Shown: positions 11,638-40,000 of the stretch, in pieces
Layout of the letters: every line of letters starts with the position of its first letter
Position numbering within the stretch: the first letter of the stretch is position 1
Source: Dehalococcoidia bacterium
Lineage (GTDB): Bacteria; Chloroflexota; Dehalococcoidia; Lucifugimonadales; UBA1123
Assembly: GCA_965217725.1 (NCBI GenBank)
Contig: OZ244564.1
Coordinates: 97,807 to 137,806 of the forward strand
Length of the DNA: 40,000 bases
Direction of reading: 5' to 3'
Notes under the pieces: model-generated
What the model saw: the letters and a program-made list of their open reading frames with translations, nothing else
The model's database searches: none
Told to the model about the DNA's origin: nothing
Made by a program: the position numbers and the translations under genes

Positions 11638-13056
11638 CTACCGGCGACTGCTCCACCGTGGCCGGTGTTCGGGTGTTCCCTGTCTGTTACCAGCGCGCCG
11701 TTTCACCCTGTAGTCCGGCGCATCGATGCGGATGAGCATCCCGCTCAATTCGTCCCGTATGCGTGACACGATTGGTCCGGTTGTGTCGAGCACGTGCATA
11801 CTGGTGGTAATGACCGTGGGCAATCGCAGGTTGTGGCGGTGGACGATGATCTGGTAGAGCTTCTCGTAAGCCCAGTCACTGCGGTATTCAACGCCAAGAT
11901 CGTCCAGAATCAGCATGGGCGCGTTCCTGACCTCGTCGAAGACCCTGTCGTACGCCACGCCGCTGTTGGGCTGGAAGGTGTATCTCAGGTAGTCCATCAA
12001 CTCGGGCACGAACGCGAAGAATACGGGTAGCCTCTGTGACAGGCGAGTCTCCGCGATCGCGATTGCGAGGTGGGTCTTGCCCGCGCCCGTCTCACCGAAC
12101 AGGGTGAGCCATCCATCTGGAGCCTCAGCCCAGGCTCTTGAGCTGTCAAACGCAGTCGTCAGGCTGTTGCGCTGCTCCGCGGACGCTGAGTTGCCGCGTG
12201 TGTCGAACGTATCGAACGCCATGCGCTGGACCATCTCGGATGGTACGCGTCCCAGACGCCTGGTTGGTTCATGGACAACACCGCGAACTTCTACCACGCG
12301 GCTGAGGGTGGGGCGAGTCATGCGGCTTGCGATGTACGGGTCGATGTCGCTGATTTGCACGGCTGTGGTAACAACTGTCGGGAGCTCGGAGTTCGCCCTG
12401 CGGTTGAATATCTGCTGAAGCTTCTCCTGTGCCCACGGAGTGGGACTCTGCGACCCCAGCCCGTCCAGCACCAGCAGCGGCGCTTCGTTGACCTGTTCGA
12501 ACAGGTCTGAGTAGGAGAGTTCGCTCATGGGTGAGTAGGTGGAACGCAGGTCGTCCAGCAGGTCGGGAACATGGACGAAGAAGACTGGTCGTCCCTGCTC
12601 GATGCAGTGGTTTGAGACCGCAGCAGCAAGATGGGTTTTCCCGGAGCCGTGCGGACCCGTTAGAACCAGCCAGCCCAATGGCAGTTCGGCATAAGCCAAC
12701 GCAGCCTCGTAAGCCATTCTGAACAGCCGCTTGCTCTCAGGATCGATGGCCATGCCTTCGGGATCGGCCGACCCGAAAGTCAACCTCGTGAGTGGGCCGA
12801 GGTTGGAATAGCGCCGCAGCCTGACCGAACGCTCACTGAGATCGATCTCGTTCTGACATTGGCACGGCTCGGCCTTGCCGAAGTCCGGGTGTCCGACCGG
12901 CGCGTCGATTGCCAGCCACAGTCTGCCCTCGCAGATTGGGCAGACGTCTTCCTCTGACTCTTCAAGAGGCGAGATGCCGTTACCAGAATCAGCGGCGTCG
13001 CCGTTGATCGGCTGGTTCTCCCGCATTCGTTTTAGGATGTCTCCGAGATTCTCCAT
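11638..13056 (-). CDS. DnaC/DnaI-like helicase-loader ATPase with two tandem AAA+ modules and an N-terminal Cys-rich zinc-finger-like motif
   Basis: 'CPICEG..(22)..CQC'. Module 1: 'GPHGSGKTHLAAAV' and Walker B 'LLVLDGLG'. Module 2: 'GETGAGKTHLAIAI' and Walker B 'MLILDDLG'. Each module ends in 'LPTVVTT' / 'LPTVITT'. Confidence 0.8.
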   Translation of the reverse strand: MENLGDILKRMRENQPINGDAADSGNGISPLEESEEDVCPICEGRLWLAIDAPVGHPDFGKAEPCQCQNEIDLSERSVRLRRYSNLGPLTRLTFGSADPEGMAIDPESKRLFRMAYEAALAYAELPLGWLVLTGPHGSGKTHLAAAVSNHCIEQGRPVFFVHVPDLLDDLRSTYSPMSELSYSDLFEQVNEAPLLVLDGLGSQSPTPWAQEKLQQIFNRRANSELPTVVTTAVQISDIDPYIASRMTRPTLSRVVEVRGVVHEPTRRLGRVPSEMVQRMAFDTFDTRGNSASAEQRNSLTTAFDSSRAWAEAPDGWLTLFGETGAGKTHLAIAIAETRLSQRLPVFFAFVPELMDYLRYTFQPNSGVAYDRVFDEVRNAPMLILDDLGVEYRSDWAYEKLYQIIVHRHNLRLPTVITTSMHVLDTTGPIVSRIRDELSGMLIRIDAPDYRVKRRAGNRQGTPEHRPRWSSRR

Positions 13057-13127
13057 AGTAGATCAACACACTTCACTTGAGGATGCCAAATAATTCCGAC
13101 CGCTCTTGATTCCCAGCCGTTCGACGA

Positions 13128-13922
13128 CTAGTTCAATGTCTCTTCTTGGCACGCCCAGTCGATATCAGCAACAGAAGCTATCAACACTAACCAAGAACTG
13201 CTGTATCGCGAACTGTGCGTTAATTTAGATGAAATCTGGTAATTGTTCACAACAGTTTGATTTTCGAACGGATCACGTTTGTCGCGAAAGAGATGCAATA
13301 ACTCGTCCAAAGTCTGTTTAACTGAAGCCTCATACTGGAAATTACTAAGGAAGCTACGTCTAATTCTGGTTCTCGTGTCGGCACTAACTACTTCAAATAT
13401 ATTGATGGATGTTGTATCTGAGATCCTGTTCAGAAAGGGGTCGCGGGCGACTTGAAAAACCGAATGACCTCTTGAAACTCGATTTGCTATATTACCCCCT
13501 TTGGAATCTTGCAGATAGCTGCGTATGTCCTCGTAAGGCATCAGAAGACAAGCAGCAAATTTGTTGCACCATATCTCTTCAGGAGTATGTCTTTTTTGGT
13601 GTGATTGGAACGATAAATTGGGCTCAGTTGTCTTACCTAAGCAGATTTTACCCGCTTTCAAGTGTGCTCTTGTCCAGTGGCCTAACTCGTGAGCCAAAGT
13701 GAATTTCTTCCTAGCAGGAGGATCGTGTTTCCGAAGAAGTATTTCAGCTCCATGTATGCCGAGCGGTATAAGATACCCTTCTTGATCGAGATTTTCTTCC
13801 TCGACGCGGAGATCAGGCCAAAGGGAACAAATGGCATGAAGGTCTGTAGGGGGTGCTCTGTGGCCGGCCGCTTCCAGTAACTGCCAGCAGACTTGTTCAG
13901 GATCTGTGGTGGTGGGCATCAT
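13128..13922 (-). CDS. ImmA/IrrE-family zinc metallopeptidase
   Basis: 'FTLAHELGHW' (HELGH at 13677-13691) and 'CNKFAACLLMP'. ATG at 13922 overlaps the upstream TGA (ATGA), so the 14024 start in the ORF track is probably an over-extension. The region is AT-rich. Confidence 0.85.
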   Translation of the reverse strand: MMPTTTDPEQVCWQLLEAAGHRAPPTDLHAICSLWPDLRVEEENLDQEGYLIPLGIHGAEILLRKHDPPARKKFTLAHELGHWTRAHLKAGKICLGKTTEPNLSFQSHQKRHTPEEIWCNKFAACLLMPYEDIRSYLQDSKGGNIANRVSRGHSVFQVARDPFLNRISDTTSINIFEVVSADTRTRIRRSFLSNFQYEASVKQTLDELLHLFRDKRDPFENQTVVNNYQISSKLTHSSRYSSSWLVLIASVADIDWACQEETLN

Positions 13923-14917
13923 TCCTCGGTACTGTCCAAGATGCGGTAGAGAATGCGACGCAGTATGGTTCGTTGATCTCGCTCGCTCATTGTGAAGCGA
14001 GCTGCTACTCCATTGAGCATCCATTCCTTTAATAGAGCAATCATTCGTTCATCTAGGTCTGGCTCCACTAAATCTGCCACTGTGGTTTTCAGAATCGCAG
14101 CAAGGGCCCGTAACTCCAAGAGAGAGGGGTTTGATATGCTGTCGCGGCTGCTCTCAATTTGACGGAGTCTATCAACGGTTAGGAGTTTGAAAGAGTGAGT
14201 GGCTACGTCCTCCTTCGTAAGTCGGGATTCTTCGCGCGTGATTCTCACCTTGTTTCCTACCATGTTTTTGTCAAAGTTTGAGAAGACAAGCTTTCTCTGC
14301 TCAAGAATCGGACGTATCTCTGTGAGGCGTTGCCGCAGTTCGAGGCCAAGTTCGTCGAAGTCCCTGTATGTAATCATAAGTTTGAATGCTGGAATACCAG
14401 TGACCATCCTGCTTACTTTCGTATCTCCATGTGCAATTAAGATAATGGGAATAAGGGCTCCGAGGGCGAAGTCCAACTCTTCACCAGCTCCCGTACTTGC
14501 GAAATCGGCAACATGAATAAGGAGATCGCAACTTAGCACACGTTCCCTGTCGATATTGAATACGTCCTCAGCAGACACGTCAGGATGCTGAATTGGGTCA
14601 GTGGCTTTTCGTGGTTCGTACAAGTTAATGTCTAGATCTTCGCAGATCGACGCCACAATATCTGACACTTTTACTAGGTGGTCTTGCTGCACATCTGTTA
14701 ACCCCGTAAGGGCAGAGGCCAAGTAAGCTTCCAATTTCAGGGGCGCAGCATCACGCTGGTACAGGATCATCTGATTAGATTCAGCTGTGTCAGCAGTTGG
14801 AAGTAAGGCCGCCTGCTCCTTATCAATGTACTTATGATGCCGGGTTTCAAACTCGTCGAGAGTAATCTGCCTAAAATGCTCGCTCAACACTTTCTGAGCA
14901 TTGTGAGGATTAACCAT
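13919..14917 (-). CDS. fusion protein: nucleoside 2-deoxyribosyltransferase-like Rossmannoid domain + C-terminal XRE-type HTH
   Basis: 'LEAYLASALTG', then 'SCDLLIHVADFASTGAGEELDFALGALIPIILIAHG', which matches the NDT-like pattern (acidic residue after a Gly-rich loop, then a helix and strand). The C-terminal 'LTKEDVATHSFKLLTVDRLRQIESSRDSISNPSLLELRALAAILKTTVADLV' is an XRE HTH. AAGGG lies 7 nt before the ATG. Confidence 0.6.
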   Translation of the reverse strand: MVNPHNAQKVLSEHFRQITLDEFETRHHKYIDKEQAALLPTADTAESNQMILYQRDAAPLKLEAYLASALTGLTDVQQDHLVKVSDIVASICEDLDINLYEPRKATDPIQHPDVSAEDVFNIDRERVLSCDLLIHVADFASTGAGEELDFALGALIPIILIAHGDTKVSRMVTGIPAFKLMITYRDFDELGLELRQRLTEIRPILEQRKLVFSNFDKNMVGNKVRITREESRLTKEDVATHSFKLLTVDRLRQIESSRDSISNPSLLELRALAAILKTTVADLVEPDLDERMIALLKEWMLNGVAARFTMSERDQRTILRRILYRILDSTEE

Positions 14918-14929
14918 AATTATGCCCTT

Positions 14930-15475
14930 TCAGGGATAACTTTCCCGCCAGATTTGTCGCACGCAGGCTCCAGTGTCACGAACAGCTATTTGGACATGTG
15001 TCCGATCAAAGAATGCAGAGTCAGGATACACAGGACGACCTTCTCTAAAGGCTGCACGCACACAGGCAATCCTAATCCCGCTCTCATTTAACACTGCTGC
15101 AGTGTAGTTTATCACTTCTCGATCCAGCGAGTGTGAGCCTCCAGACTGCGTAGGTACGATGAGGCCTGCCTCTCGAAGGAGTTTCAGGTACGCATCATAA
15201 GCATCGGATAGGACTTGGTTCCAATGTAAGTCCAGCAAATCTAAGCAGTCCGTAATTTGGATTTCTGCTCCCATCACAGCTGCGTTACTCCCATGTCGGT
15301 CTATTGCCCATTCCCACGCCCTGAGAGGTGCATCTTGAAAGAAATAGACACCATCGCCAAGCCAATCGTAAGTATTCCGACTTAATTGGAATCCCTCAGC
15401 CGCAATAATATCAGCGACTTCAGAACTCGTTCCATGATAGCCTCTAACTAATAGTTGGGGCACTTGAGAGTCCAT
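14930..15475 (-). CDS. ADP-ribosyltransferase-fold-like (DUF3990-like) protein, putative effector
   Basis: The N-terminus 'LVRGYHGTSSEVADIIAAEGF' ... 'WLGDGVYFFQDAPLRAWEWA' resembles the H-Y-[E/D] ART pattern (diphtheria toxin 'YHGT' .. 'GFY') and the DUF3990 pattern 'YHGS..DFGxGFY..A..WA'. It is the first gene of the AT-rich operon. Confidence 0.45.
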   Translation of the reverse strand: MDSQVPQLLVRGYHGTSSEVADIIAAEGFQLSRNTYDWLGDGVYFFQDAPLRAWEWAIDRHGSNAAVMGAEIQITDCLDLLDLHWNQVLSDAYDAYLKLLREAGLIVPTQSGGSHSLDREVINYTAAVLNESGIRIACVRAAFREGRPVYPDSAFFDRTHVQIAVRDTGACVRQIWRESYP

Positions 15476-15637
15476 AATTGTTTCAATTATCGAGTGTTGG
15501 GACTGGTGACTTCTGTATCAATCGATCGCCATTGCCGGTGGTAGGACATGAAGGCCAGTGCCCGAAGACCACGAGTTTGTGCGGATGATCAGTACCACAC
15601 GTGAGGCCTGACCAGAGGCTTCAAGGTTATGCAATTC

Positions 15638-16270
15638 CTAATACCTGCCTGCCATCCGAGGCGCTCCACCCACGTCGCGTGATCCCCTGCCCTCGTGCTC
15701 CCATCGTTCGAGTATTCTCGAGATGTAACGCCAGCTCCGCTTGTTCTGCGCCACTGCCTCGCTGATCGCGTCTTCTATCCACTCCTCGGGATACATGTCC
15801 TCGGCTTCCAGCAGCGCGTCGGCTATCATCGGACTGAGCATCCCTATGTTCTGTTCGTACATTTCGAACACGTTTGGTCGCTCTACGGACGGGTCGGGTG
15901 GTTCCTGGTACGTCTCCGACCAACGTGTGGGCTGCGACGCGAGCTTCTCGAGGGCCGACCTGTCCGCCTCGGAGTTCAGCCCGAATATGGGTTGACGTTT
16001 GCCGTCGTTTACGACGACTGCGAAGGCCAGTGTTCCCCGTCGTACCGCGCTGCCCAGCGCCCTTTCGATCTGCGTTGCGGGCTGAGATTCGCCGTCTTCT
16101 GGCATGGCTCGGACGAGACTATCGTCGGCCTGCAGCTCGCGTAGCGTGACGAACCTCGGATATCCGCGCTTCTGGCTCAGCAGCGCGACCGCTCTGAGAG
16201 TGCACTTCAGCTCCGCCATGTCATCGATCTGGACAAGCAGAGAGCCGAGGAGCGGCGCGGGCACCGGCAC
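15638..16270 (-). CDS. DnaD-domain replication initiation protein
   Basis: The C-terminus 'NVFEMYEQNIGMLSPMIADALLEAEDMYPEEWIEDAISEAVAQNKRSWRYISRILERWEHEG' matches the DnaD/DnaB_2 domain pattern. It lies downstream of dnaB. GTG start at 16270; ATG at 16219 is an alternative. Confidence 0.75.
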   Translation of the reverse strand: MPVPAPLLGSLLVQIDDMAELKCTLRAVALLSQKRGYPRFVTLRELQADDSLVRAMPEDGESQPATQIERALGSAVRRGTLAFAVVVNDGKRQPIFGLNSEADRSALEKLASQPTRWSETYQEPPDPSVERPNVFEMYEQNIGMLSPMIADALLEAEDMYPEEWIEDAISEAVAQNKRSWRYISRILERWEHEGRGSRDVGGAPRMAGRY

Positions 16271-16370: not shown

Positions 16371-17759
16371 TCATGTCGGCGCGTACTCCATAGATCGCGC
16401 CTGGCTCACTTCCGTCAGCGTCTCGAAGCGGACTCGATCATTGCGGAAGTATAGGGGCACGGTGCCGACCGGCCCGTTACGGTGCTTGGAGACGATTACC
16501 TCCGCGATGTTTTCGGGGTACTGGTCGGTGGGGAACTTGCGCTCCCATTCTTCACGAGTGGTGTACTGGTCCTCGCGGTGAATGAACGCCACCACGTCGG
16601 CATCCTGCTCGATCGACCCGGACTCGCGAAGGTCCGATAGCAGTGGGCGGTGGTTCGGCCTCTGCTCGACCGCTCTGCTGAGCTGCGAACACGCCATCAC
16701 TGGGATGTCCAGCTCCCGGGCAAGGGCCTTGAGCGAGCGCGACACCTCTCCCAGGGCGACCGCGCGGTTGTCGTTTCTTCCCACGTCAATCAATTGCAGG
16801 TAGTCCACGATCAGCAGGTCGAGACCGCTCTCCTGTTGGAGCCGGCGCGACTTACTGCGCAACTCCATGACGGACTGGAATGGAGTATCGTCCACGAAGA
16901 TCTGCAGGTCGGAAAGTAGGCCGACCGCATCGAGAACGCGTACCTCTTCGACGTCACTGATCAGGTTCATGCGCAGCCGGTGACTGTCGACCTCGGCCTC
17001 GGACGCCAGAAGCCGGGAAGCGATCTGTTCGCCGCTCATCTCCAGGCTGAATAGACCAGCCGAGAATCCCCCTTGTGCAGCGTTTCGCGCCATGTTGAGC
17101 GCGAGTGCACTCTTGCCGAGGCTGGGACGGGCTGCGAGGATAATCAGGTCCGAGCGCTGAAGCCCGCCGCCCAGGAGTTCGTCAAGGCTGGGAAAACCGG
17201 TCACCACGGGCGCGAGCGAGATCCTTGACGGATCGTGCAGCGCGCCGGTCTCCTCCATGTAGTTATCGAGGTAGTCGCGGATGTGGGTGAAGCCCTTCGC
17301 GTTGCGCCCGCTCCGGATGCCGAACACGACCTCCTCGGCTTTGTCCAGCACTTCCCCGACTTCCGGACCGCCTTCGTACCCAAGGTCGGCGATCTCTCCA
17401 CCCGCTCGGATAACGTGCCTTAGGACAGAGGCGCCATGAACTATGTTGGCGTAGTGCTCGATGTGGATGGACGTGGGGACGTTCGACACGAGGCGAGCCA
17501 AGTACTCGGCTCCGCCGATCTGCTCAAGCGCACCCTCCTCGATGGAGATCTCATGCGCCACGGAGACCTGGTCTATCGCGCCGTTTCTCTCATACAGCGC
17601 CAGGCACGCGTCGTAGCACTTGCGGTTGCGCTGGCTGTAGAAGTCTGTGGGTCTGAGGATACTGGTGACGCGCGCGATCGACTCACCGTCGATCAGTATA
17701 GAGCCGATGACCGACTCCTCGGCGCCAATGTCATGGGGTTGAAGACGGTCGCTAACCAC
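16371..17759 (-). CDS. dnaB: replicative DNA helicase DnaB
   Basis: 'PHDIGAEESVIGSIL', Walker A 'ARPSLGKSALALN', 'LLIVDYLQL' and 'SQLSRAVEQR'. GTG at 17759 is preceded by GGAGG with a 5-nt spacer; the ORF track starts at TTG 17783. Confidence 0.92.
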   Translation of the reverse strand: MVSDRLQPHDIGAEESVIGSILIDGESIARVTSILRPTDFYSQRNRKCYDACLALYERNGAIDQVSVAHEISIEEGALEQIGGAEYLARLVSNVPTSIHIEHYANIVHGASVLRHVIRAGGEIADLGYEGGPEVGEVLDKAEEVVFGIRSGRNAKGFTHIRDYLDNYMEETGALHDPSRISLAPVVTGFPSLDELLGGGLQRSDLIILAARPSLGKSALALNMARNAAQGGFSAGLFSLEMSGEQIASRLLASEAEVDSHRLRMNLISDVEEVRVLDAVGLLSDLQIFVDDTPFQSVMELRSKSRRLQQESGLDLLIVDYLQLIDVGRNDNRAVALGEVSRSLKALARELDIPVMACSQLSRAVEQRPNHRPLLSDLRESGSIEQDADVVAFIHREDQYTTREEWERKFPTDQYPENIAEVIVSKHRNGPVGTVPLYFRNDRVRFETLTEVSQARSMEYAPT

Positions 17760-17832
17760 GGCTGCCTCCGCACGGTGGATCAATACTCTGCCCGGGCGGG
17801 GCTGGGGACCTCGCTATGCGAGGCCGGACCGA

Positions 17833-18614: not shown

Positions 18615-19736
18615 ATGATGCGGCGAATATATATACACGAACAACCCGACTGGCCTCACTTCCAGTGGCGGCAGGAGGAGCTAATTGGCAAACTCGCTGC
18701 GGTTAGACATCGACAGGGCCGTTTCGTGGGGCGTATGGAGGCCCTTGGGTTTGACCTCCGTCAGGAAGCCATTCTCAACACACTGACCGAGGATGCGGTT
18801 AAGACAAGCGAGATTGAAGGGGAGATACTCAATACAGATCTGGTACGTTCTTCTGTCGCTCGTCGTCTCGGAATGGAGATCGCTGGCCTGGGCTCCAGTG
18901 ATCGCGGAGTCGAAGGCATCGTTGAACTGATGTTAGACGCTACGGAGAACTATGACCGGCCCCTCACAAAGGAGCGACTGTTCGGTTGGCACGCATCTCT
19001 GTTTCCCACGGGGCGAAGCGGCCTGCGGCGGATAAGGGTGGGTGACTGGCGTGACGATAACACCGGCCCGATGCAGGTTGTCTCAGGCCCCATTGGCCGG
19101 GAACGGGTTCACTTCGAAGCCCCGGCGGCGGCGAGAGTCGACCATGAGATGAGAACTTTCATGGACTGGTTCAACGCGCCGGCCGATACTGACGACGTCC
19201 TCAAGGCTGGGCTGGCTCACCTCTGGTTCGTTACGGCCCATCCATTCGACGACGGTAACGGACGCATCGCCAGGGCGATCGCTGACATGGCCTTAGCTCG
19301 TTCTGAAGACAGCCCTCAGCGCTTCTACAGTATGTCGTCACAGATACGTCTGGAGCGATCCGAATACTACAGGGTCTTGGAGCGAACCCAGAGGGGAACG
19401 ATCGATGTCTCCGAGTGGTTAGGCTGGTTTGTGTCCTGCTTGGGACGAGCCTTAGAGGGTGCCGAGACGACGCTCTCGGCGGTGCTAAACAAGGCACGCT
19501 TCTGGCAGGGGATCGCGAGTCTCCCAGTTAACGAACGGCAGCGTATCGTCATCAATCACCTTCTGGATGGATTTGAAGGCAAGTTGACCACGTCCAGATG
19601 GGCAAGGCTGACGAAGTGCTCTCAGGATACAGCTCTCCGTGACATCACCAATCTCGTGGAGCGTGGCATACTCAAGCGAAGCCAGGAAGGTGGGAGGAGT
19701 ACTAGCTACACTCTCGTTAAGGTTATTTTGCCTTAG
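18615..19736 (+). CDS. Fic family protein (AMPylase-type) with an N-terminal inhibitory-helix motif
   Basis: Fic motif 'HPFDDGNGRIARA'. N-terminal 'TSEIEGE' fits the (S/T)xxxE(G/N) autoinhibition motif. The C-terminal region looks wHTH-like. Confidence 0.9.
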   Translation: MMRRIYIHEQPDWPHFQWRQEELIGKLAAVRHRQGRFVGRMEALGFDLRQEAILNTLTEDAVKTSEIEGEILNTDLVRSSVARRLGMEIAGLGSSDRGVEGIVELMLDATENYDRPLTKERLFGWHASLFPTGRSGLRRIRVGDWRDDNTGPMQVVSGPIGRERVHFEAPAAARVDHEMRTFMDWFNAPADTDDVLKAGLAHLWFVTAHPFDDGNGRIARAIADMALARSEDSPQRFYSMSSQIRLERSEYYRVLERTQRGTIDVSEWLGWFVSCLGRALEGAETTLSAVLNKARFWQGIASLPVNERQRIVINHLLDGFEGKLTTSRWARLTKCSQDTALRDITNLVERGILKRSQEGGRSTSYTLVKVILP

Positions 19737-21208: not shown

Positions 21209-21694
21209 TCAATCATGACGTATGCCGTCGCATTGATCTTCGATGAATTCCAACACTTCGACACAGCGATCGAGGTAGTCTCTTACCCTATGTACGGTGA
21301 TCCTTACTGTTCCTCCATGAGAAATCTGATTCCGGTTATTCATAATCGAGTCGAGTGCGTCTCTTCTGTAAGGAGCGTCTTCATTAAGGTATTCTTCCAA
21401 CTCATCCCGCCAGGACGGATTGAACGCCCCCGCAACTTCAACGAATCGTTGGGAATTAGGGTTCGACACTCGCGCAAGACGTCCAGATACATAGCGCGCA
21501 ACTTGAGGACTTGAGGACTGAGCGGCGAATCCTGAGTAAAGCGCTTGAAGACTGTTCTCCAAGAATCCAGCAGCGACGACACATAAGTATCGTCCCCAAT
21601 GGGCCTGTAATTCGATGTCCTGTGTAGCTATCTGGGTCTGGTTGATCAACCGCCGCAGTTGAAGTAACTGCCGGGTCAAAACAGGATTACGCAT
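21209..21694 (-). CDS. HEPN-domain protein (MAE_28990/MAE_18760-like)
   Basis: Rx4H motif 'RNQISH' (21317-21334) in an all-helical 161-aa protein. It overlaps the upstream DUF262 gene by 8 nt. AT-rich. Confidence 0.65.
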   Translation of the reverse strand: MRNPVLTRQLLQLRRLINQTQIATQDIELQAHWGRYLCVVAAGFLENSLQALYSGFAAQSSSPQVARYVSGRLARVSNPNSQRFVEVAGAFNPSWRDELEEYLNEDAPYRRDALDSIMNNRNQISHGGTVRITVHRVRDYLDRCVEVLEFIEDQCDGIRHD

Positions 21695-22808
21695 TCTTGA
21701 AAGCGGTTGTAGCGACTCTTATGCGTTTCTGGACCGAACTTTCGTCCGACGTACCCTGTATGACAGATCGTAAGTACTCGTCATTCTCAACCAAAGAATC
21801 ATGTACAGCCACTATCTCTGAAGGCTTGGGTATTCTTCCTTTTGCTATCCGTTTAGCAAGTCCAACTGTCATCGAGTCGAACACTGCGGCATTCACCGCC
21901 CTACCTTCACTAAGCCGGAACGGTCGGGCTTTCGCATCGGCAAACCCACTAATAGTTTGCTTGAATAGCGCCGATGTATCCTTCAGCCACAATTCTCCAG
22001 GGTTCTTATTTTTTTGGGCGAAGACATTCAGGAATTCGACCATAGGCTTGCTATACTCGTGACCTTGGTGCCACATTGCCATGAACCGAAGTATCAACTC
22101 CTGGTCCTTGAGACGAGGGTTTGGCCTGCCCATGATTCCTCTCCACTTTGGCGAGTCATTCATTTCTTGAATTTTGTCTATCAAGTCACCTTGGTAAACG
22201 GCACACCTTATCTCGTGGGGATTCACCTTACTGCCGCCGGTATTAAGTCGTTTGAATATCTGGTACATGCTCGTGTCGTTGTCTGGCGGGGCCTCCTGCC
22301 TAACAACAGTCGCGTGGATCAGTGAGTCGTCCAGATTGCGGCGATCTCTTTCTTTCAGGTCTCCAATGGCCAAACCTTCAAAGCGGCCATCAACTCCTAT
22401 CAGCTTGAATAACGTGCTGCTGTGCTGAGTATTCGGTCTAGGAATCTCTCCTGAATAGAAGAACTGTAGTGTCTTGAGACGCTGTTGACCGTCAATGACA
22501 TATAGGCGGCCAGACTCAGTTTGCCTACCCAAAAAAACACCGGGAACAGGTAATCCAAATAGAAGTGATTCGATGAAGCTGGAGGCCTGTCTTGTACTCC
22601 AGACATAGCGTCGCTGCCAGCCTGGTACAACTATCCCGTCGTCGTTAAGCCGCCGAACAATCCCTGCAACATCAAAATCGATTCCGAAGCTGGTGATGTC
22701 ATACCTGAGAGGTGGTACCGCTTCATCAGTGTCCGACTCATCAAGGATGTCGTCGTCCGTCCCGGTGATAAGATCCCTAGACTCAAGCTCATCGAATTGA
22801 TCTATCAT
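21687..22808 (-). CDS. DUF262 (ParB/Srx-fold, GmrSD N-terminal-like) domain protein
   Basis: 'PGWQRRYVWSTRQASSFIESLLFGLPVPGVFL' ... 'YVIDGQQRLKTLQFF' are the hallmark DUF262 motifs. AT-rich. Confidence 0.85.
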   Translation of the reverse strand: MIDQFDELESRDLITGTDDDILDESDTDEAVPPLRYDITSFGIDFDVAGIVRRLNDDGIVVPGWQRRYVWSTRQASSFIESLLFGLPVPGVFLGRQTESGRLYVIDGQQRLKTLQFFYSGEIPRPNTQHSSTLFKLIGVDGRFEGLAIGDLKERDRRNLDDSLIHATVVRQEAPPDNDTSMYQIFKRLNTGGSKVNPHEIRCAVYQGDLIDKIQEMNDSPKWRGIMGRPNPRLKDQELILRFMAMWHQGHEYSKPMVEFLNVFAQKNKNPGELWLKDTSALFKQTISGFADAKARPFRLSEGRAVNAAVFDSMTVGLAKRIAKGRIPKPSEIVAVHDSLVENDEYLRSVIQGTSDESSVQKRIRVATTAFKNA

Positions 22809-25380: not shown

Positions 25381-25462
25381 TTTTACCTCTTTGGGCTGAG
25401 ATTCTCTATGAGGCTGTATCAGTTTAGTCGGTACGCTGCTCGAAGGTGCCATATCAGCTGCG

Positions 25463-25543
25463 CCGTCATTCCGGCGAAGGCCGGAATCCAGAGGGGCAGG
25501 GCAACGCTCTTATCGAAGCCACCGACCAAATTGATACAGCATC
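25463..25543 (+). repeat. 81-bp repeat, copy 1 (100% identical to 33447-33527)
   Basis: ccgtcattccggcgaaggccggaatccagaggggcagggcaacgctcttatcgaagccaccgaccaaattgatacagcatc. It contains the hairpin ATTCCGGC-GAAG-GCCGGAAT. Confidence 0.95.
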
Positions 25544-25559
25544 ATTCTCTATGCAAGAC

Positions 25560-25586
25560 TTGACAACACCCCTTATCAGCGATAAT
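25560..25586 (+). promoter_or_regulatory. promoter-like TTGACA-N15-GATAAT, 16 nt downstream of 81-bp repeat copy 1
   Basis: TTGACA at 25560-25565 and GATAAT at 25581-25586, facing the NYN gene (ATG 25677). The same arrangement follows copy 2. Confidence 0.4.
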
Positions 25587-25676
25587 CGTACATTACTAAC
25601 CCCCCTGACTGGTTCGCCGGCAGGGTCAAGGCTGTCGCAAGGCAGCCTTTGTTTTTGTTCTGGACTTTCGAGTTTA

Positions 25677-26267
25677 ATGCGTACGAACTTCTACATTGAT
25701 GGATTCAACCTGTATTTTGGTGCCCTGGCAAGGAGTAGTCCGTACAAGTGGCTTGACTTGGGCAGACTGTGCTCGCGGCTTGTTCCCCGACACGAAGTGA
25801 GGCGGATTCGGTATTTCACCGCTCGTGTAGTGGATAGGCCAGACCGTCTAGGTCAGGGGCAACGACAGAATACTTACCTGCGCGCTTTGCGTACTATACC
25901 AGATTTGAGCATTCATCAAGGACGGTTTCAGACTCATCGCCGACGACGACCGCTGGCCGGACCAATCCCTGGTGTGGGGAGAACTGTAGAGGCCATAGAG
26001 ACTTTGGTTGACGGATTTCAAGGTGACTACGAACAAGCCGTGGTCGTATCGAACGACTCAGATCTGGCGCTCGCGATACGGAAGGTCCGTGATGTGGTCG
26101 GGCTACCTGTCGGAGTAGTCAATCCTGCCCCAAAGGGACCAACAAGGATGCTCACTGAGTCAAGCACATTCCAGCGTCACATACGCGCCACGAAGTTGTC
26201 TGAGTGCCAGTTCCCAGACACGCTTACTGACGACGTTGGAACGATCACCAAGCCTACCGAATGGTAG
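25677..26267 (+). CDS. NYN-domain (PIN-like) protein, possibly degenerate
   Basis: 'MRTNFYIDGFNLYFGAL..YKWLDLGRL..IRYFTARV' and 'AVVVSNDSDLALAIRKV'. The ATG at 25677 is in frame within ORF 25446-26267, whose first 77 codons merely translate the repeat. Confidence 0.75.
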   Translation: MRTNFYIDGFNLYFGALARSSPYKWLDLGRLCSRLVPRHEVRRIRYFTARVVDRPDRLGQGQRQNTYLRALRTIPDLSIHQGRFQTHRRRRPLAGPIPGVGRTVEAIETLVDGFQGDYEQAVVVSNDSDLALAIRKVRDVVGLPVGVVNPAPKGPTRMLTESSTFQRHIRATKLSECQFPDTLTDDVGTITKPTEW

Positions 26268-36739: not shown

Positions 36740-37078
36740 ATGGTGAAGAAAATGGACAAGATCGTCCGAGACAAACATGACGAAATCGTCGCGTTGTGTA
36801 AGCAACACAAAGTAAACAGGCTCCATGTTATCGGGTCTGTGAGCGACTGCCTGCATGAGACCGGTATGCGCGACCTCGACTTTCTCGCTAGGTTCGATGA
36901 CCCCGATCCGTATCGAAAAGGTCTAAGATCCCTCTACTTCAATTTCATAGTCGCCTTGGAGGATCTGTTCGAAGGACATGCGGATCATCTGCTTGTGGCA
37001 GTGGAGGGTGAGTTAGGCGACCCGTACCTAAAACGGATGATAGAAGAATCGAAGGAGCTGCTCTATGCCGCCGCCTGA
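36740..37078 (+). CDS. mntA: nucleotidyltransferase-domain antitoxin (MntA-like, type VII TA)
   Basis: 'HVIGSVSD...RDLDFLARFD' is a minimal-NTase GS..D.D pattern. It overlaps the downstream DUF86 gene by 14 nt. Confidence 0.7.
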   Translation: MVKKMDKIVRDKHDEIVALCKQHKVNRLHVIGSVSDCLHETGMRDLDFLARFDDPDPYRKGLRSLYFNFIVALEDLFEGHADHLLVAVEGELGDPYLKRMIEESKELLYAAA

Positions 37079-37418
37079 TGCGGTAAAGCTTCTACAATAC
37101 TTACAGAACGCTGCGGAGCTGATCTTGCAGTTCATCGAGACAAAGGACTTCGCAGGGTACAACCAAAACGTGATGCTGCAGTCGGCGGTGGAGAGGCAAC
37201 TCATAGTCGTTGGAGAAGCGGTCAACGTATTGTCGAGACTCAATCCTGAAGCAGCGTTTCGTATAACAGATTACCCTCGGATCATTGCGTTCAGAAATCG
37301 ATTGGTACACACATTTTTCACTGTGGACAACAGGATAGTGTGGCAAGTTGTGAATAGCGACATTATCACCCTCTACAGGGAAGCCTCCGAGCTGCTACAG
37401 GAATTCGAGGAAAGCTGA
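37065..37418 (+). CDS. hepT: DUF86/HepT HEPN-domain toxin
   Basis: Rx4H motif 'RNRLVH' followed by 'TFFTVDNRIVWQVV', typical of DUF86. Confidence 0.8.
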   Translation: MPPPDAVKLLQYLQNAAELILQFIETKDFAGYNQNVMLQSAVERQLIVVGEAVNVLSRLNPEAAFRITDYPRIIAFRNRLVHTFFTVDNRIVWQVVNSDIITLYREASELLQEFEES

Positions 37419-38576: not shown

Positions 38577-39137
38577 CTACTCGTACGTTACCAAATCCAA
38601 CCTTTCAAGGTAATCTACAACTCTATCTACGCTCGGCCTTGAGATGTTCCAGCCAAGATCGTCAGCCTGTCCCCTGATCTGTCCGATAGTAGCCTCGCCG
38701 CGGTCAGAGAGAATAAAGTGGACTTTTGCTGCTATAGAGATGGTGTTGATATCTGAAGCAATACCTGACTCGTTGATCTTGTCGAGGTATGGACGGTATG
38801 GGTCCACGATTTCTGGCCGCTGATTGACAACACGTTGGCCCGATTCGCTAAGGCTGTAGTCAAAGCGGCTCATTTCTCCAAAAGTGGTAGGTATGCCGTA
38901 ACGGACTCGAGTCTCTTCAATGAAATCTGCTTCAATCAGTGTGCCCAATGCTGTTGACACGATTGAACTATACGGGCCGTAGAAATGCGGCCTGAATCCG
39001 AAATTCTCGCATGTGAGCACTGACAAGAAATACATCTTCTTTTGAATCAGCGTTCTGCCGCGGGTGACTCCCGTCTCAGAAGACGGCTGAGTTGGTTTTG
39101 CATCAAGTATTGCTAGGACGGCATCGGACACACTCAT
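38577..39137 (-). CDS. Panacea/DUF4065 (SocA-like antitoxin)-like protein with C-terminal wHTH-like region
   Basis: 'TLIQKKMYFLSVL..GFRPHFYGPYSSIVSTALGTL' resembles the Panacea pattern (KLQKLLYF...YGPV...V). Its ATG overlaps the upstream stop (GCATGA), with GGAGG 6 nt upstream. AT-rich. Confidence 0.4.
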   Translation of the reverse strand: MSVSDAVLAILDAKPTQPSSETGVTRGRTLIQKKMYFLSVLTCENFGFRPHFYGPYSSIVSTALGTLIEADFIEETRVRYGIPTTFGEMSRFDYSLSESGQRVVNQRPEIVDPYRPYLDKINESGIASDINTISIAAKVHFILSDRGEATIGQIRGQADDLGWNISRPSVDRVVDYLERLDLVTYE

Positions 39138-40000
39138 GCTGAACCTCCTAGATATTCATCTATAACATTTCTTATTTCTTGTTCAATGTGAAGTCTTTCC
39201 GATCTGATGTCAGTCGACTTCCAGTCATATGGTGCAATCACATAGAGAGTATTTGAGTATGGCAGTTGGCCCACAACCAACTCGTCGTATGCATCCATAG
39301 TTTGGGTTTCACCATATCGATCGCTGACCATTATAGCTTCTGGATCCAATGTGTTTGGAGCTTGGTAGGCTGGATTTTTGACGTCCTTCACCTCCACAAT
39401 TACTTCCCAAGGCTCACATCCTATCCGATTTGCGATCAGCTCTTGCAGTTTTTGGCGTCTTTGAGAACTTCCGCTGGATTCCCGTACTAGGCTTGCATAT
39501 TGAGATCTTAAAAGGGGGTTAGAGATCTCTTGCTTGTTAATCCGTATTCTTGCCAGTTGTTTATAGAGGCGCCGAGAATCAAGTCTGTCGTAGATACTTT
39601 TTGGTCTGCGTAATTTGCAATTTATTAAGGAAGTAATTAGTCGGTCATCGTGGTATGTGACGTAATTCTGACAAAAGTCAGGGGACCCATCATATTCGTA
39701 TAGATCTTTAATTTCATTTAGACCATCTTCAATGGCTAATTCTAGCCCTCTAACTATCATATAGTCAGTTATCACGCGAATCCTGTGAGCATACACTTGG
39801 TGACTCATGTGATGTTTGGCAAGAATGAGTTGCTCAGTTGCAAATATTCCCGACTCATCAATGCCTAGATAAGTCTGGCCGCCCCAGGAGATGAATGCAA
39901 ACGAATCATAAATCTTTTCGAGGTCGAAAGCTCCGTACTGGACACCCGTAAAGTGGCCATCGCGGGTAAGATAGTCAATTTTGTCAGCATCCAAGTCACT
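39134..40000 (-). CDS. HD-domain phosphohydrolase, SAMHD1/dGTPase-like (COG1078-like), 5'-truncated by the window edge
   Basis: 'DADKIDYLTRDGHFTGVQYG' is the D-x-x-DYL-x-RD motif of SAMHD1-type HD enzymes. The reading frame stays open to position 40000, so the N-terminal HD core lies outside the window. Confidence 0.6.
   Translation of the reverse strand, partial: SDLDADKIDYLTRDGHFTGVQYGAFDLEKIYDSFAFISWGGQTYLGIDESGIFATEQLILAKHHMSHQVYAHRIRVITDYMIVRGLELAIEDGLNEIKDLYEYDGSPDFCQNYVTYHDDRLITSLINCKLRRPKSIYDRLDSRRLYKQLARIRINKQEISNPLLRSQYASLVRESSGSSQRRQKLQELIANRIGCEPWEVIVEVKDVKNPAYQAPNTLDPEAIMVSDRYGETQTMDAYDELVVGQLPYSNTLYVIAPYDWKSTDIRSERLHIEQEIRNVIDEYLGGSA

Follow-up and report, generated by a model that had tools for sequence, protein, structure and literature searches.

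We analyzed a window of 40,000 nucleotides (the whole stretch of DNA presented here) from a Dehalococcoidia bacterium (NCBI GenBank assembly GCA_965217725.1, contig OZ244564.1, positions 97,807 to 137,806 of the forward strand), which carries on its minus strand a compact cassette of three genes, here called g1, g2 and g3. Their products are predicted to be an ADP-ribosyltransferase (ART), a fusion of an NDT-like enzyme domain to an XRE-type helix-turn-helix (HTH), and an M78 metallopeptidase, respectively. Coordinates and sequence agreed with the original prediction, made from the sequence alone, that three co-directional open reading frames (ORFs) are tightly packed at this locus, and the peptide motifs it had quoted were all found in the translations. 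g1 and g2 (332 amino acids), both taken from the ORF list, are separated by 12 nucleotides (‘AAGGGCATAATT’), with AAGGG as the Shine-Dalgarno sequence 7 nucleotides ahead of the g2 ATG, and g2 overlaps g3 by the four nucleotides ATGA at the junction GAATGATG. The mechanical g3 ORF reaches 14024; we placed the g3 start at the ATG overlapping the g2 stop codon, in agreement with the lengths of 45 g3 homologs (234–265 amino acids). We found 493 homologs of g1 and more than 365 of g2, the latter of ∼333 amino acids, and the genes are far beyond chance ORFs.

The cassette also differs from its surroundings in base composition. The G+C content was 0.44–0.49 in 500-nucleotide windows over 13001–15500, compared with ∼0.58–0.64 in the flanks, and 0.471 over the trio compared with 0.592 for the remainder of the window. 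The operon had been described as AT-rich from a line of ∼37% G+C; the deficit relative to the flanks held, but 37% proved to be a local extreme and the genes are AT-rich only in a relative sense.

The most direct evidence for mobility of the cassette came from comparison with empty sites. In two close relatives (L169 and L170), whose flanks share 96–97% and 90–97% nucleotide identity with the window, respectively (blastn), the homologous flanking genes are rplI, dnaB, a DnaB_2 gene, a DnaC/IstB-like gene and a HIT gene, but the DnaB_2 stop codon is separated from the start of the DnaC-like gene by only 264 bp, compared with 2,581 bp (13058–15638) in the window. Homology to both relatives breaks precisely at these two gene boundaries: it stops at 15639, where the DnaB_2 stop codon has its final base, and restarts at 13057, 1 nucleotide ahead of the DnaC-like ATG. 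Because both relatives carry only the 264-bp spacer at this site, we conclude that the cassette is a strain-specific insertion here. Around the insert we found no target duplication, flanking direct or inverted repeat, terminal repeat or tRNA-type attachment site, and no sigma-70-like promoter or terminator stood out; an Rfam search of the window returned no RNA.

Features of the three-gene cassette, in coordinates of the window.
Feature	Coordinates	Strand	Basis
Inserted segment with the whole cassette	13058..15638	-	blastn against L169/L170; G+C 0.47 compared with 0.59
g1 leader, 162 nucleotides, presumed promoter/operator region including a palindrome	15476..15637	-	Sequence reading
g1, 181-amino-acid H-Y-[EDQ] ART-fold protein, presumed effector	14930..15475	-	AlphaFold (AF2), Foldseek, PADLOC, conserved residues
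g2 residues 1–56, N-terminal extension: two helices and a disordered linker	14750..14917	-	AF2, alignment
g2 residues 57–215, NDT / nucleotide N-glycosidase fold with intact catalytic set	14273..14749	-	Foldseek, Pfam, invariant residues
g2 residues 216–332, XRE-type HTH and two-helix tail (CapH/DdrO-like)	13922..14272	-	Pfam, PADLOC, AF2
g2, whole gene	13919..14917	-	ORF list
g3, 264-amino-acid M78 (ImmA/IrrE/CapP-type) zinc metallopeptidase, presumed trigger	13128..13922	-	Pfam, PADLOC, conserved residues

A palindrome in the g1 leader (AATTG-AAA-CAATT, 15476–15488, extendable to the 6-bp arms TAATTG/CAATTA) touches the g1 ATG. It is present where the original prediction placed it, but the operator role suggested for it did not hold up: palindromes with 6-bp arms occurred in 7 of 31 upstream regions of distinct g1 homologs, about the random expectation, these 31 regions had no inverted repeat in common, and neither the sequence nor the position of the palindrome was conserved. 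Given this chance-level frequency and lack of conservation, we rejected the palindrome as evidence for an operator.

Some features of the insertion site were recorded in their own right. The 264-bp spacer of the empty sites (7316–7580 in L169/L170) contains an inverted repeat of ∼18 nucleotides (CCAATTTTGTAGGTGT ... ACACCTACAAAATTG) and a short GC hairpin, so that it resembles a small palindromic intergenic element, and it has the 10-mer ATTGATACAG in common with the g1 leader of the window. The DnaB helicase of L169 (3907–6582) has 891 amino acids and contains an intein with a LAGLIDADG endonuclease; that of the window (16371–17783) has 470 amino acids and is intein-free. The neighboring dnaC-like gene (11638–13056, minus strand) encodes 472 amino acids with two tandem IstB/DnaC-type AAA+ modules, and its orthologs have IstB_IS21 twice in their Pfam lists.

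A scan of metagenome contigs with a g2 profile yielded 70 loci, and a search of genome contigs with a single protein query returned one (L003). Across the metagenome loci with room for the respective neighbor, g1 lay directly upstream of g2 in 49 of 54 and g3 directly downstream in 49 of 52; the full trio was present in 36 of the 41 loci with room on both sides, always in one order and on one strand. Most of the exceptions were decayed copies (L006, L054, L068 and L073). Look-ups that started from two g1 homologs likewise yielded full trios, and no case of a close g1 lacking g2 came up. Pairwise identities correlated strongly among the three proteins (Mantel r 0.86–0.95, p = 0.001). The trio had a lower G+C content than its flanks at every one of the 23 loci whose flanks extend 3 kb or more, by 7.9 points on average, in hosts of 45–69% G+C. 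Unrelated housekeeping genes made up most of the 130 neighboring ORFs at 18 loci; a few methyltransferases, mad genes and one AriA-like ATPase were also among them, and no family recurred, including any integrase, transposase or phage family. We conclude that the three genes move together and diverge in step; the check suggested with the original prediction, whether the trio co-occurs in unrelated genomes, came out in its favor, as the trio is conserved in unrelated genomic contexts. Homologs came from sources named as Chloroflexota, Gaiellaceae, Candidatus Angelobacter, Thermodesulfobacteriota and Poribacteria, plus one Dehalococcoidia metagenome-assembled genome (MAG), and no g2 relative was found in 2.9 million viral contigs, 50,697 phage records or 72,556 plasmid records. 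The trio family seems confined to uncultured environmental bacteria.

g3 scored above the Pfam cut-off for Peptidase_M78 (PF06114; E = 1.5e-13, 51.1 bits compared with a cut-off of 22), and its best match in the defense library was PADLOC capP (1.1e-22), which aligned to residues 7–229 over profile positions 4–197 of 242; PADLOC also gave weak matches to RmrA. Both results uphold the earlier assignment of g3 as an ImmA/IrrE peptidase. The HExxH motif (H78-E79-x-x-H82), E116 and C119 are conserved in the 45 homologs, C119, beside E116, being the sole conserved cysteine, and the C-terminal half of the protein, the part in which peptidases of this kind have a GAF-like domain, is poorly conserved.

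The AF2 model of g2 was of moderate confidence (predicted local distance difference test score, pLDDT, of 70) with a clear architecture. The N-terminal extension is predicted to form helices at residues 4–14 and 20–30, followed by a segment (residues 35–56) with pLDDT below 50. Residues 57–215 form an alpha/beta domain whose best Foldseek matches were the CMP/hmCMP N-glycosidases MilB and BcmB, nucleoside 2′-deoxyribosyltransferases (NDT) and DNPH1 (E 1e-6 to 1e-4; target template-modeling (TM) scores of 0.72–0.81). Y65, D123, D131 and E147 (hereafter Y-D-D-E) are invariant in the homolog alignment, and the last three align to the Asp, Asp and Glu of NDT entry 7m5h. Following established NDT chemistry, E147 presumably occupies the position of the nucleophile, which is Glu98 in NDT (reference cited in PMC3710099). 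g2 is thus like the NDT/DNPH1/MilB/BcmB superfamily (PF05014) in its predicted fold and its Tyr, Asp, Asp, Glu constellation, and differs from it in scoring below the Pfam cut-off (E = 1e-3, 19.7 compared with 28.8 bits) and in being fused to a putative DNA-binding repressor within a presumed conflict cassette. No macrodomain or NADAR signal was found in g2 with Pfam or PADLOC. In the C-terminal part, HTH_31 matched below its cut-off (E = 0.017, 15.9 compared with 27 bits), residues 251–322 matched PADLOC capH weakly (3e-3), and profile searches of the PDB gave weak matches to DdrOC and SinR (E 0.007–0.3). AF2 placed HTH-like helices at 221–284 and two further helices at 288–301 and 312–331, separated by a low-confidence loop (302–310) in which the invariant R307 sits; we regard this loop as a candidate cleavage site. 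The joining of an NDT-like domain to an XRE HTH, as claimed in the original prediction, agrees with these fold matches, with the HTH_31 and capH matches and with the predicted helices.

For g1, Pfam PARP (PF00644) matched residues 13–84 only and below its cut-off (E = 2.5e-3, 17.8 compared with 26.7 bits), NCBIfam gave no match, and phrog_14664, whose function is not known, matched with 4e-15. The best match in the defense library was PADLOC PD-T4-9_A (5e-5), which spans the H and Y motifs and which, going by the names, we take to be the CmdT model. The AF2 model, built from 58 homologs, had a pLDDT of 93; its top Foldseek matches in the PDB were the catalytic domains of PARP1/2/4 (probability ∼1.0; TM scores of 0.40–0.48), with exotoxin A lower in the list and the anti-CRISPR entry 6kyf and NatT also matched. 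Among viral models (BFVD) it matched large phage polyvalent proteins with E-values down to 9e-7, two of these proteins carrying the annotation ART-PolyVal. H14 and Y44 show little or no variation, and Q162 (in the strand HVQIAV) and E145 are at least 90% conserved even among representatives of 34–53% identity; either of the latter may be the third catalytic residue of an H-Y-[EDQ] set. From the model and the conserved residues, we are confident in assigning g1 a predicted ART fold of the H-Y-[EDQ] (diphtheria-toxin/PARP/CmdT-like) type, in keeping with the ART-like fold first proposed for it.

Comparison of g2 homologs by sequence indicated that g2 and g3 are a chassis with an exchangeable first gene, which may be an ART, an 8xMP, an S24 domain or none. 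In one clade of g2-like proteins (285–288 amino acids; L085–L088), g3 follows and a 160-amino-acid 8xMP ‘octameric membrane protein’ (PF24838) precedes; two of these proteins, P0417 and P0425, are ∼55% identical to the other clades. In a second clade (289 amino acids, P0391–P0398; L040, L041 and L079–L081), g3 again follows, and the place of the first gene is either taken by a 104–113-amino-acid S24-peptidase domain or empty. L083 lacks upstream cargo; its neighbors are BrxL fragments, HicB and DUF4365. L003 (4995–6002) is an intact solo g2, 71% identical and with its catalytic residues kept, that lies between ispG and proS in the Dehalococcoidia MAG with no g1 or g3, and has the appearance of an orphan antidote or regulator. 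At L085–L087 the downstream region contains two RimK-like ATP-grasp genes, and a weak, sub-threshold EACC1 match lies upstream at L088.

When all g2 proteins were aligned to the profile, every ART-linked g2 retained Y-D-D-E. The N-terminal extension aligned in most of them; those of L027, L057, L058 and L062 were too divergent to align and have full-length ORFs, and at L084, where the called start is too short, the extension was found upstream in frame. The 8xMP-linked proteins and L083 retain Y-D-D-E and lack the extension. The S24/no-cargo clade also lacks the extension and carries [Y/F]-N-D-[A/V], with the catalytic Asp and Glu lost. The extension (45–55 residues) is thus absent from all non-ART chassis variants, with the solo g2 of L003 alone retaining it, and among the variants it appears as a feature tied to ART-linked g2. 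We considered whether the NDT residues track the presence of g1 and rejected this: the g1-less clade of 289 amino acids lost them, but the 8xMP-linked proteins and L083 keep them. Because Y-D-D-E is kept in these latter proteins, NDT catalysis appears to have been selected independently of the ART, and to decay only where no plausible toxic cargo is left.

One explanation for these results, which we favor while giving it somewhat less than an even chance, is that the trio is a self-contained, horizontally mobile conflict cassette, serving as a defense system or a toxin and antidote, on a protease-gated repressor chassis. In unstressed cells, g2 would dimerize through its C-terminal helices and repress the operon from the g1 leader, and would also restrain residual g1, most likely through direct binding by its N-terminal extension in the style of a type II antitoxin. 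Infection or DNA damage (as single-stranded DNA (ssDNA), by analogy to CapP and IrrE) would activate g3, and activated g3 would cut g2 in the loop near R307 between the two C-terminal helices. This cleavage would lift repression and destabilize the antidote, such that the ART is both produced and freed, and the freed ART would ADP-ribosylate a nucleic-acid or protein target and thereby arrest the cell or the phage. For the NDT domain we favor the role of a cargo-independent second effector, a nucleotide or NAD-type N-glycosidase that would rise with induction, because its catalytic residues are retained with a membrane-protein cargo; an eraser of ADP-ribosyl bases would come next and nucleotide sensing after that, both being less likely.

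The element of this proposal in which a protease cleaves a repressor appears well grounded, as g3 matches capP and g2 has a CapH/DdrO-like HTH and helical pair. CapP, IrrE and ImmA are metallopeptidases that are activated by DNA damage or ssDNA and cleave their cognate XRE repressors (PMC13228613, bioRxiv 2022.04.27.489752 and PMC10904395 jointly). CapP cleaves CapH in its C-terminal dimerization domain when ssDNA is present (PMC13228613), the cut being at F82-R83 (the same three sources jointly), and in DdrO the cut falls within a C-terminal-domain loop bearing a critical Arg (PMC10904395). A cut by g3 near R307 would be expected because g2 shares the CapH/DdrO layout, with an HTH, a two-helix tail and the invariant R307 in a loop. 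As for the effector, PD-T4-9 is CmdTAC (PMC9519451, PMC11618068), whose toxin CmdT, an ART of the HY-[E,D,Q] type resembling exotoxin A, modifies mRNA by ADP-ribosylation and serves as a defense effector (PMC11618068).

Several observations weigh against the proposal. The toxicity of g1, the cleavage of g2 and the binding of g2 to DNA are steps that we infer. The ART, NDT and HTH assignments draw on predicted folds and conserved residues, with Pfam scores below the cut-offs, and the TM scores of the g1 matches were modest (0.40–0.50). No conserved operator was found among the 31 upstream regions of g1 homologs. The cassette has its cargo first and all genes co-directional, whereas canonical CapH/CapP pairs precede their cargo and point away from it (bioRxiv 2022.04.27.489752), and a cut near the C terminus of g2 does not alone explain the release of g1. 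The neighborhoods of the trio are only occasionally defense islands, and many distant relatives of g1 on viral contigs occur without g2 or g3, which suggests that the ART family is not necessarily lethal to its carrier and may have other roles. Finally, g3 was called at 141–155 amino acids in L173 (4443–4868) and L174 (5076–5543) compared with 248 amino acids in L172 (5076–5822), on contigs in which g1 is identical and g2 is of equal length. L173 and L174 come from one metagenome sample, and the shortening may be a truncation that varies within the population or an assembly frameshift; if g3 is truncated there, as it appears to be, the trigger may be dispensable.

In a more far-reaching version of the favored reading, which we regard as doubtful, an ssDNA-activated protease of the ImmA/CapP type would destroy a bifunctional antidote-repressor and thereby release a CmdT-like ART, making the trio an unrecognized anti-phage or abortive-infection system. 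The NDT domain would then represent a new immune activity, either the first ADP-ribosyl-nucleobase glycohydrolase of the NDT family or a protease-gated nucleotide or NAD N-glycosidase effector, and g2 and g3 would be a general trigger into which cargo such as an ART or a pore-like 8xMP protein can be swapped.

Three other explanations have to be weighed against the favored one. The first, which we consider unlikely, is a writer-eraser toxin-antitoxin (TA) system, in which g1 would ADP-ribosylate a nucleobase, the NDT domain of g2 would hydrolyze the ribose-N link in the manner of DarG or NADAR, and g3 would remove the eraser-repressor to unleash g1. The chemistry is plausible in that an ADP-ribosyl base resembles a nucleoside 5′-phosphate, the substrate class of MilB, BcmB and DNPH1, and the best fold matches of g2 are nucleotide 5′-monophosphate N-glycosidases. 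Pairs of an ART and a hydrolase are established in DarT/DarG and DarT1/NADAR (PMC12945103), a solo g2 is tolerated at L003, and Y-D-D-E is invariant in every ART-linked g2 and lost in a g1-less clade. However, the 8xMP-linked g2 proteins of L085–L088 keep these residues without an ART and L083 keeps them without any upstream cargo, and tables of known erasers contain no ADP-ribosyl hydrolase of the NDT family. We therefore downgraded the simple eraser model, and with it the suggestion in the original prediction that the NDT-like domain neutralizes the ART was weakened, since the fusion and its peptidase keep the catalytic residues next to 8xMP.

The second explanation is that g2 and g3 are a regulatory pair only, that is, a CapH/CapP-type switch for the adjacent gene in which the NDT domain would be a ligand-sensing or oligomerization module for a nucleotide or a phage-modified nucleotide, with no antidote role. 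Small-molecule-binding domains are common on XRE regulators, the first gene can be exchanged, the top PADLOC matches are capP and capH, and the clade with a dead NDT domain keeps both the HTH and g3, which indicates that the pair can function without NDT catalysis. Nevertheless, the presumed nucleophile Glu and both Asp residues are strictly kept across ∼40–50% divergence, which argues for catalysis rather than mere binding, the absence of the extension from all non-ART variants suggests a direct relationship between g1 and g2, and the co-directional, translationally coupled, effector-first order is TA-like rather than CapH/CapP-like. We consider it improbable that regulation is the whole function of the pair. 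The third and least likely explanation is that the trio has no defense role, being a damage- or stress-inducible module of regulatory ADP-ribosylation or the leftover ImmR/ImmA region of a decayed mobile element with an ART ‘moron’: IrrE/DdrO and ImmA/ImmR do govern damage responses and element induction, the cassette lies inside a replication cluster (rplI-dnaB-DnaB_2-DnaC-like) and g1 relatives are frequent in viral contigs, but no integrase, transposase or phage gene recurred among the 130 neighboring ORFs of 18 loci, g2 relatives were not found in the viral contigs or the phage and plasmid records searched, and the three genes insert alone at unrelated sites, their position in the replication cluster being strain-specific.

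Returning to the protease-gated conflict cassette, its resemblance to known systems is partial in each case. As in CapH/CapP, IrrE/DdrO and ImmA/ImmR, an M78 HExxH peptidase adjoins a putative XRE repressor with a predicted C-terminal helical dimerization module, and switches of this kind are associated with toxic or immune cargo. g2, however, carries ∼215 additional N-terminal residues (the extension and the NDT-fold enzyme domain), and g3 differs from CapP in having C119 beside the third metal ligand and a variable loop that lacks a conserved cysteine switch. The cassette appears to resemble a CapH/CapP-controlled effector, but its genes stand in another order and its putative repressor is fused to an enzyme domain. 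CmdTAC (PD-T4-9) is similar in that it, too, comprises three genes, the first of which codes for a small ART of the HY-[E,D,Q], exotoxin-A-like type (predicted in the case of g1), alongside a neutralizing partner (putative here). The similarity to PD-T4-9_A, however, covers only the N-terminal half of the g1 protein, neither a CmdA-like antitoxin nor a SecB-like CmdC is encoded, and g2 and g3, which lack matches to PD-T4-9 B or C, are an NDT::XRE fusion and an M78 peptidase instead. With DarTG and DarT1-NADAR the cassette shares an ART that adjoins an enzyme possibly hydrolyzing N-glycosidic ADP-ribose and a presumed multi-domain antidote; here the putative eraser has an NDT fold rather than a macrodomain or NADAR, a protease gene and an HTH are added, and the 8xMP variants argue against an eraser-only role of g2. 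Xre-COG2856 fusion systems such as PD-lambda-2 likewise have an HTH, an ImmA-like peptidase and a toxin-like gene within a single operon (PMC9519451); in the present cassette, by contrast, HTH and peptidase do not share a gene, and the HTH is joined to an enzyme domain. The statement that the trio is not a named system stands: PADLOC (2023) gave no system-level match, full-text literature searches found no paper that combines these components, and literature searches on ART, NDT and ImmA combinations and on ‘8xMP’ found nothing relevant.

A g1 profile run against 1.84 billion cluster representatives matched 3,917 clusters (E ≤ 1e-3), which largely comprise stand-alone proteins of 170–220 amino acids. 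Distant relatives are encoded on 174 viral contigs, and in the 80 such loci examined there was no g2 relative and a single weak g3-like match, an M78 peptidase in L129 that we judged to be unrelated. An M78 peptidase ∼600 nucleotides downstream of a g1 relative in L075, with no HTH gene between, was likewise judged unrelated. In ∼27 of the 80 viral loci (L094–L167, e.g. L094 2729–3579), a small upstream ORF of 60–100 amino acids abuts or overlaps the ART start; these ORFs have a common C-terminal motif (A..fL...GIl...G.L...Y) and belong to no Pfam family. Such a layout is that of an antitoxin and toxin, and may represent an uncharacterized two-gene module. Homology of these small ORFs to the g2 extension was also considered: hhalign paired the expected segments with a probability of 8.9% and E = 0.0037, which is not significant and makes such homology no more than a lead.

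Elsewhere in the window, an islet at 21209–22808 (minus strand, G+C 0.49) encodes a GmrSD_N-family protein (PADLOC NsnA 1.6e-54, PD-T4-2_A 1.8e-47) followed by a RiboL-PSP HEPN protein, and is probably a PD-T4-2/Nsn-like defense pair. Accessory genes, mostly of low G+C content, lie at 18615–19736 (plus strand), 25446–26267 (plus strand), 36740–37418 (plus strand) and 38577–39994 (minus strand); they include a Fic/DOC protein with DUF4172 (SoFic-like, 2.6e-41), an NYN-domain HEC-09-like protein, a TA pair of MNT-like (PDC-S09) and HepT proteins, and an HD_assoc_2 protein adjoining an ORF with a weak DarG match. That several of the scanned low-G+C islets match defense or TA families fits the idea that low-G+C insertions in this genome are conflict cargo.

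If the favored reading is correct, the cassette would link cleavable repressors of the CapH/DdrO type, which sense DNA damage, with ADP-ribosylating anti-phage toxins, two themes that are separate at present, in one compact three-gene unit that occurs in several phyla according to the names of its sources. It would also give an immune role to the NDT/DNPH1 fold, whose contexts to date are nucleotide salvage, antibiotic biosynthesis and predicted toxins. The swapping of the cargo (ART, 8xMP or none) offers a ready comparative design for experiments. The absence of the family from the phage and plasmid collections searched, together with its seemingly uncultured hosts, may be the reason that it has escaped E. 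coli- and Bacillus-based screens.

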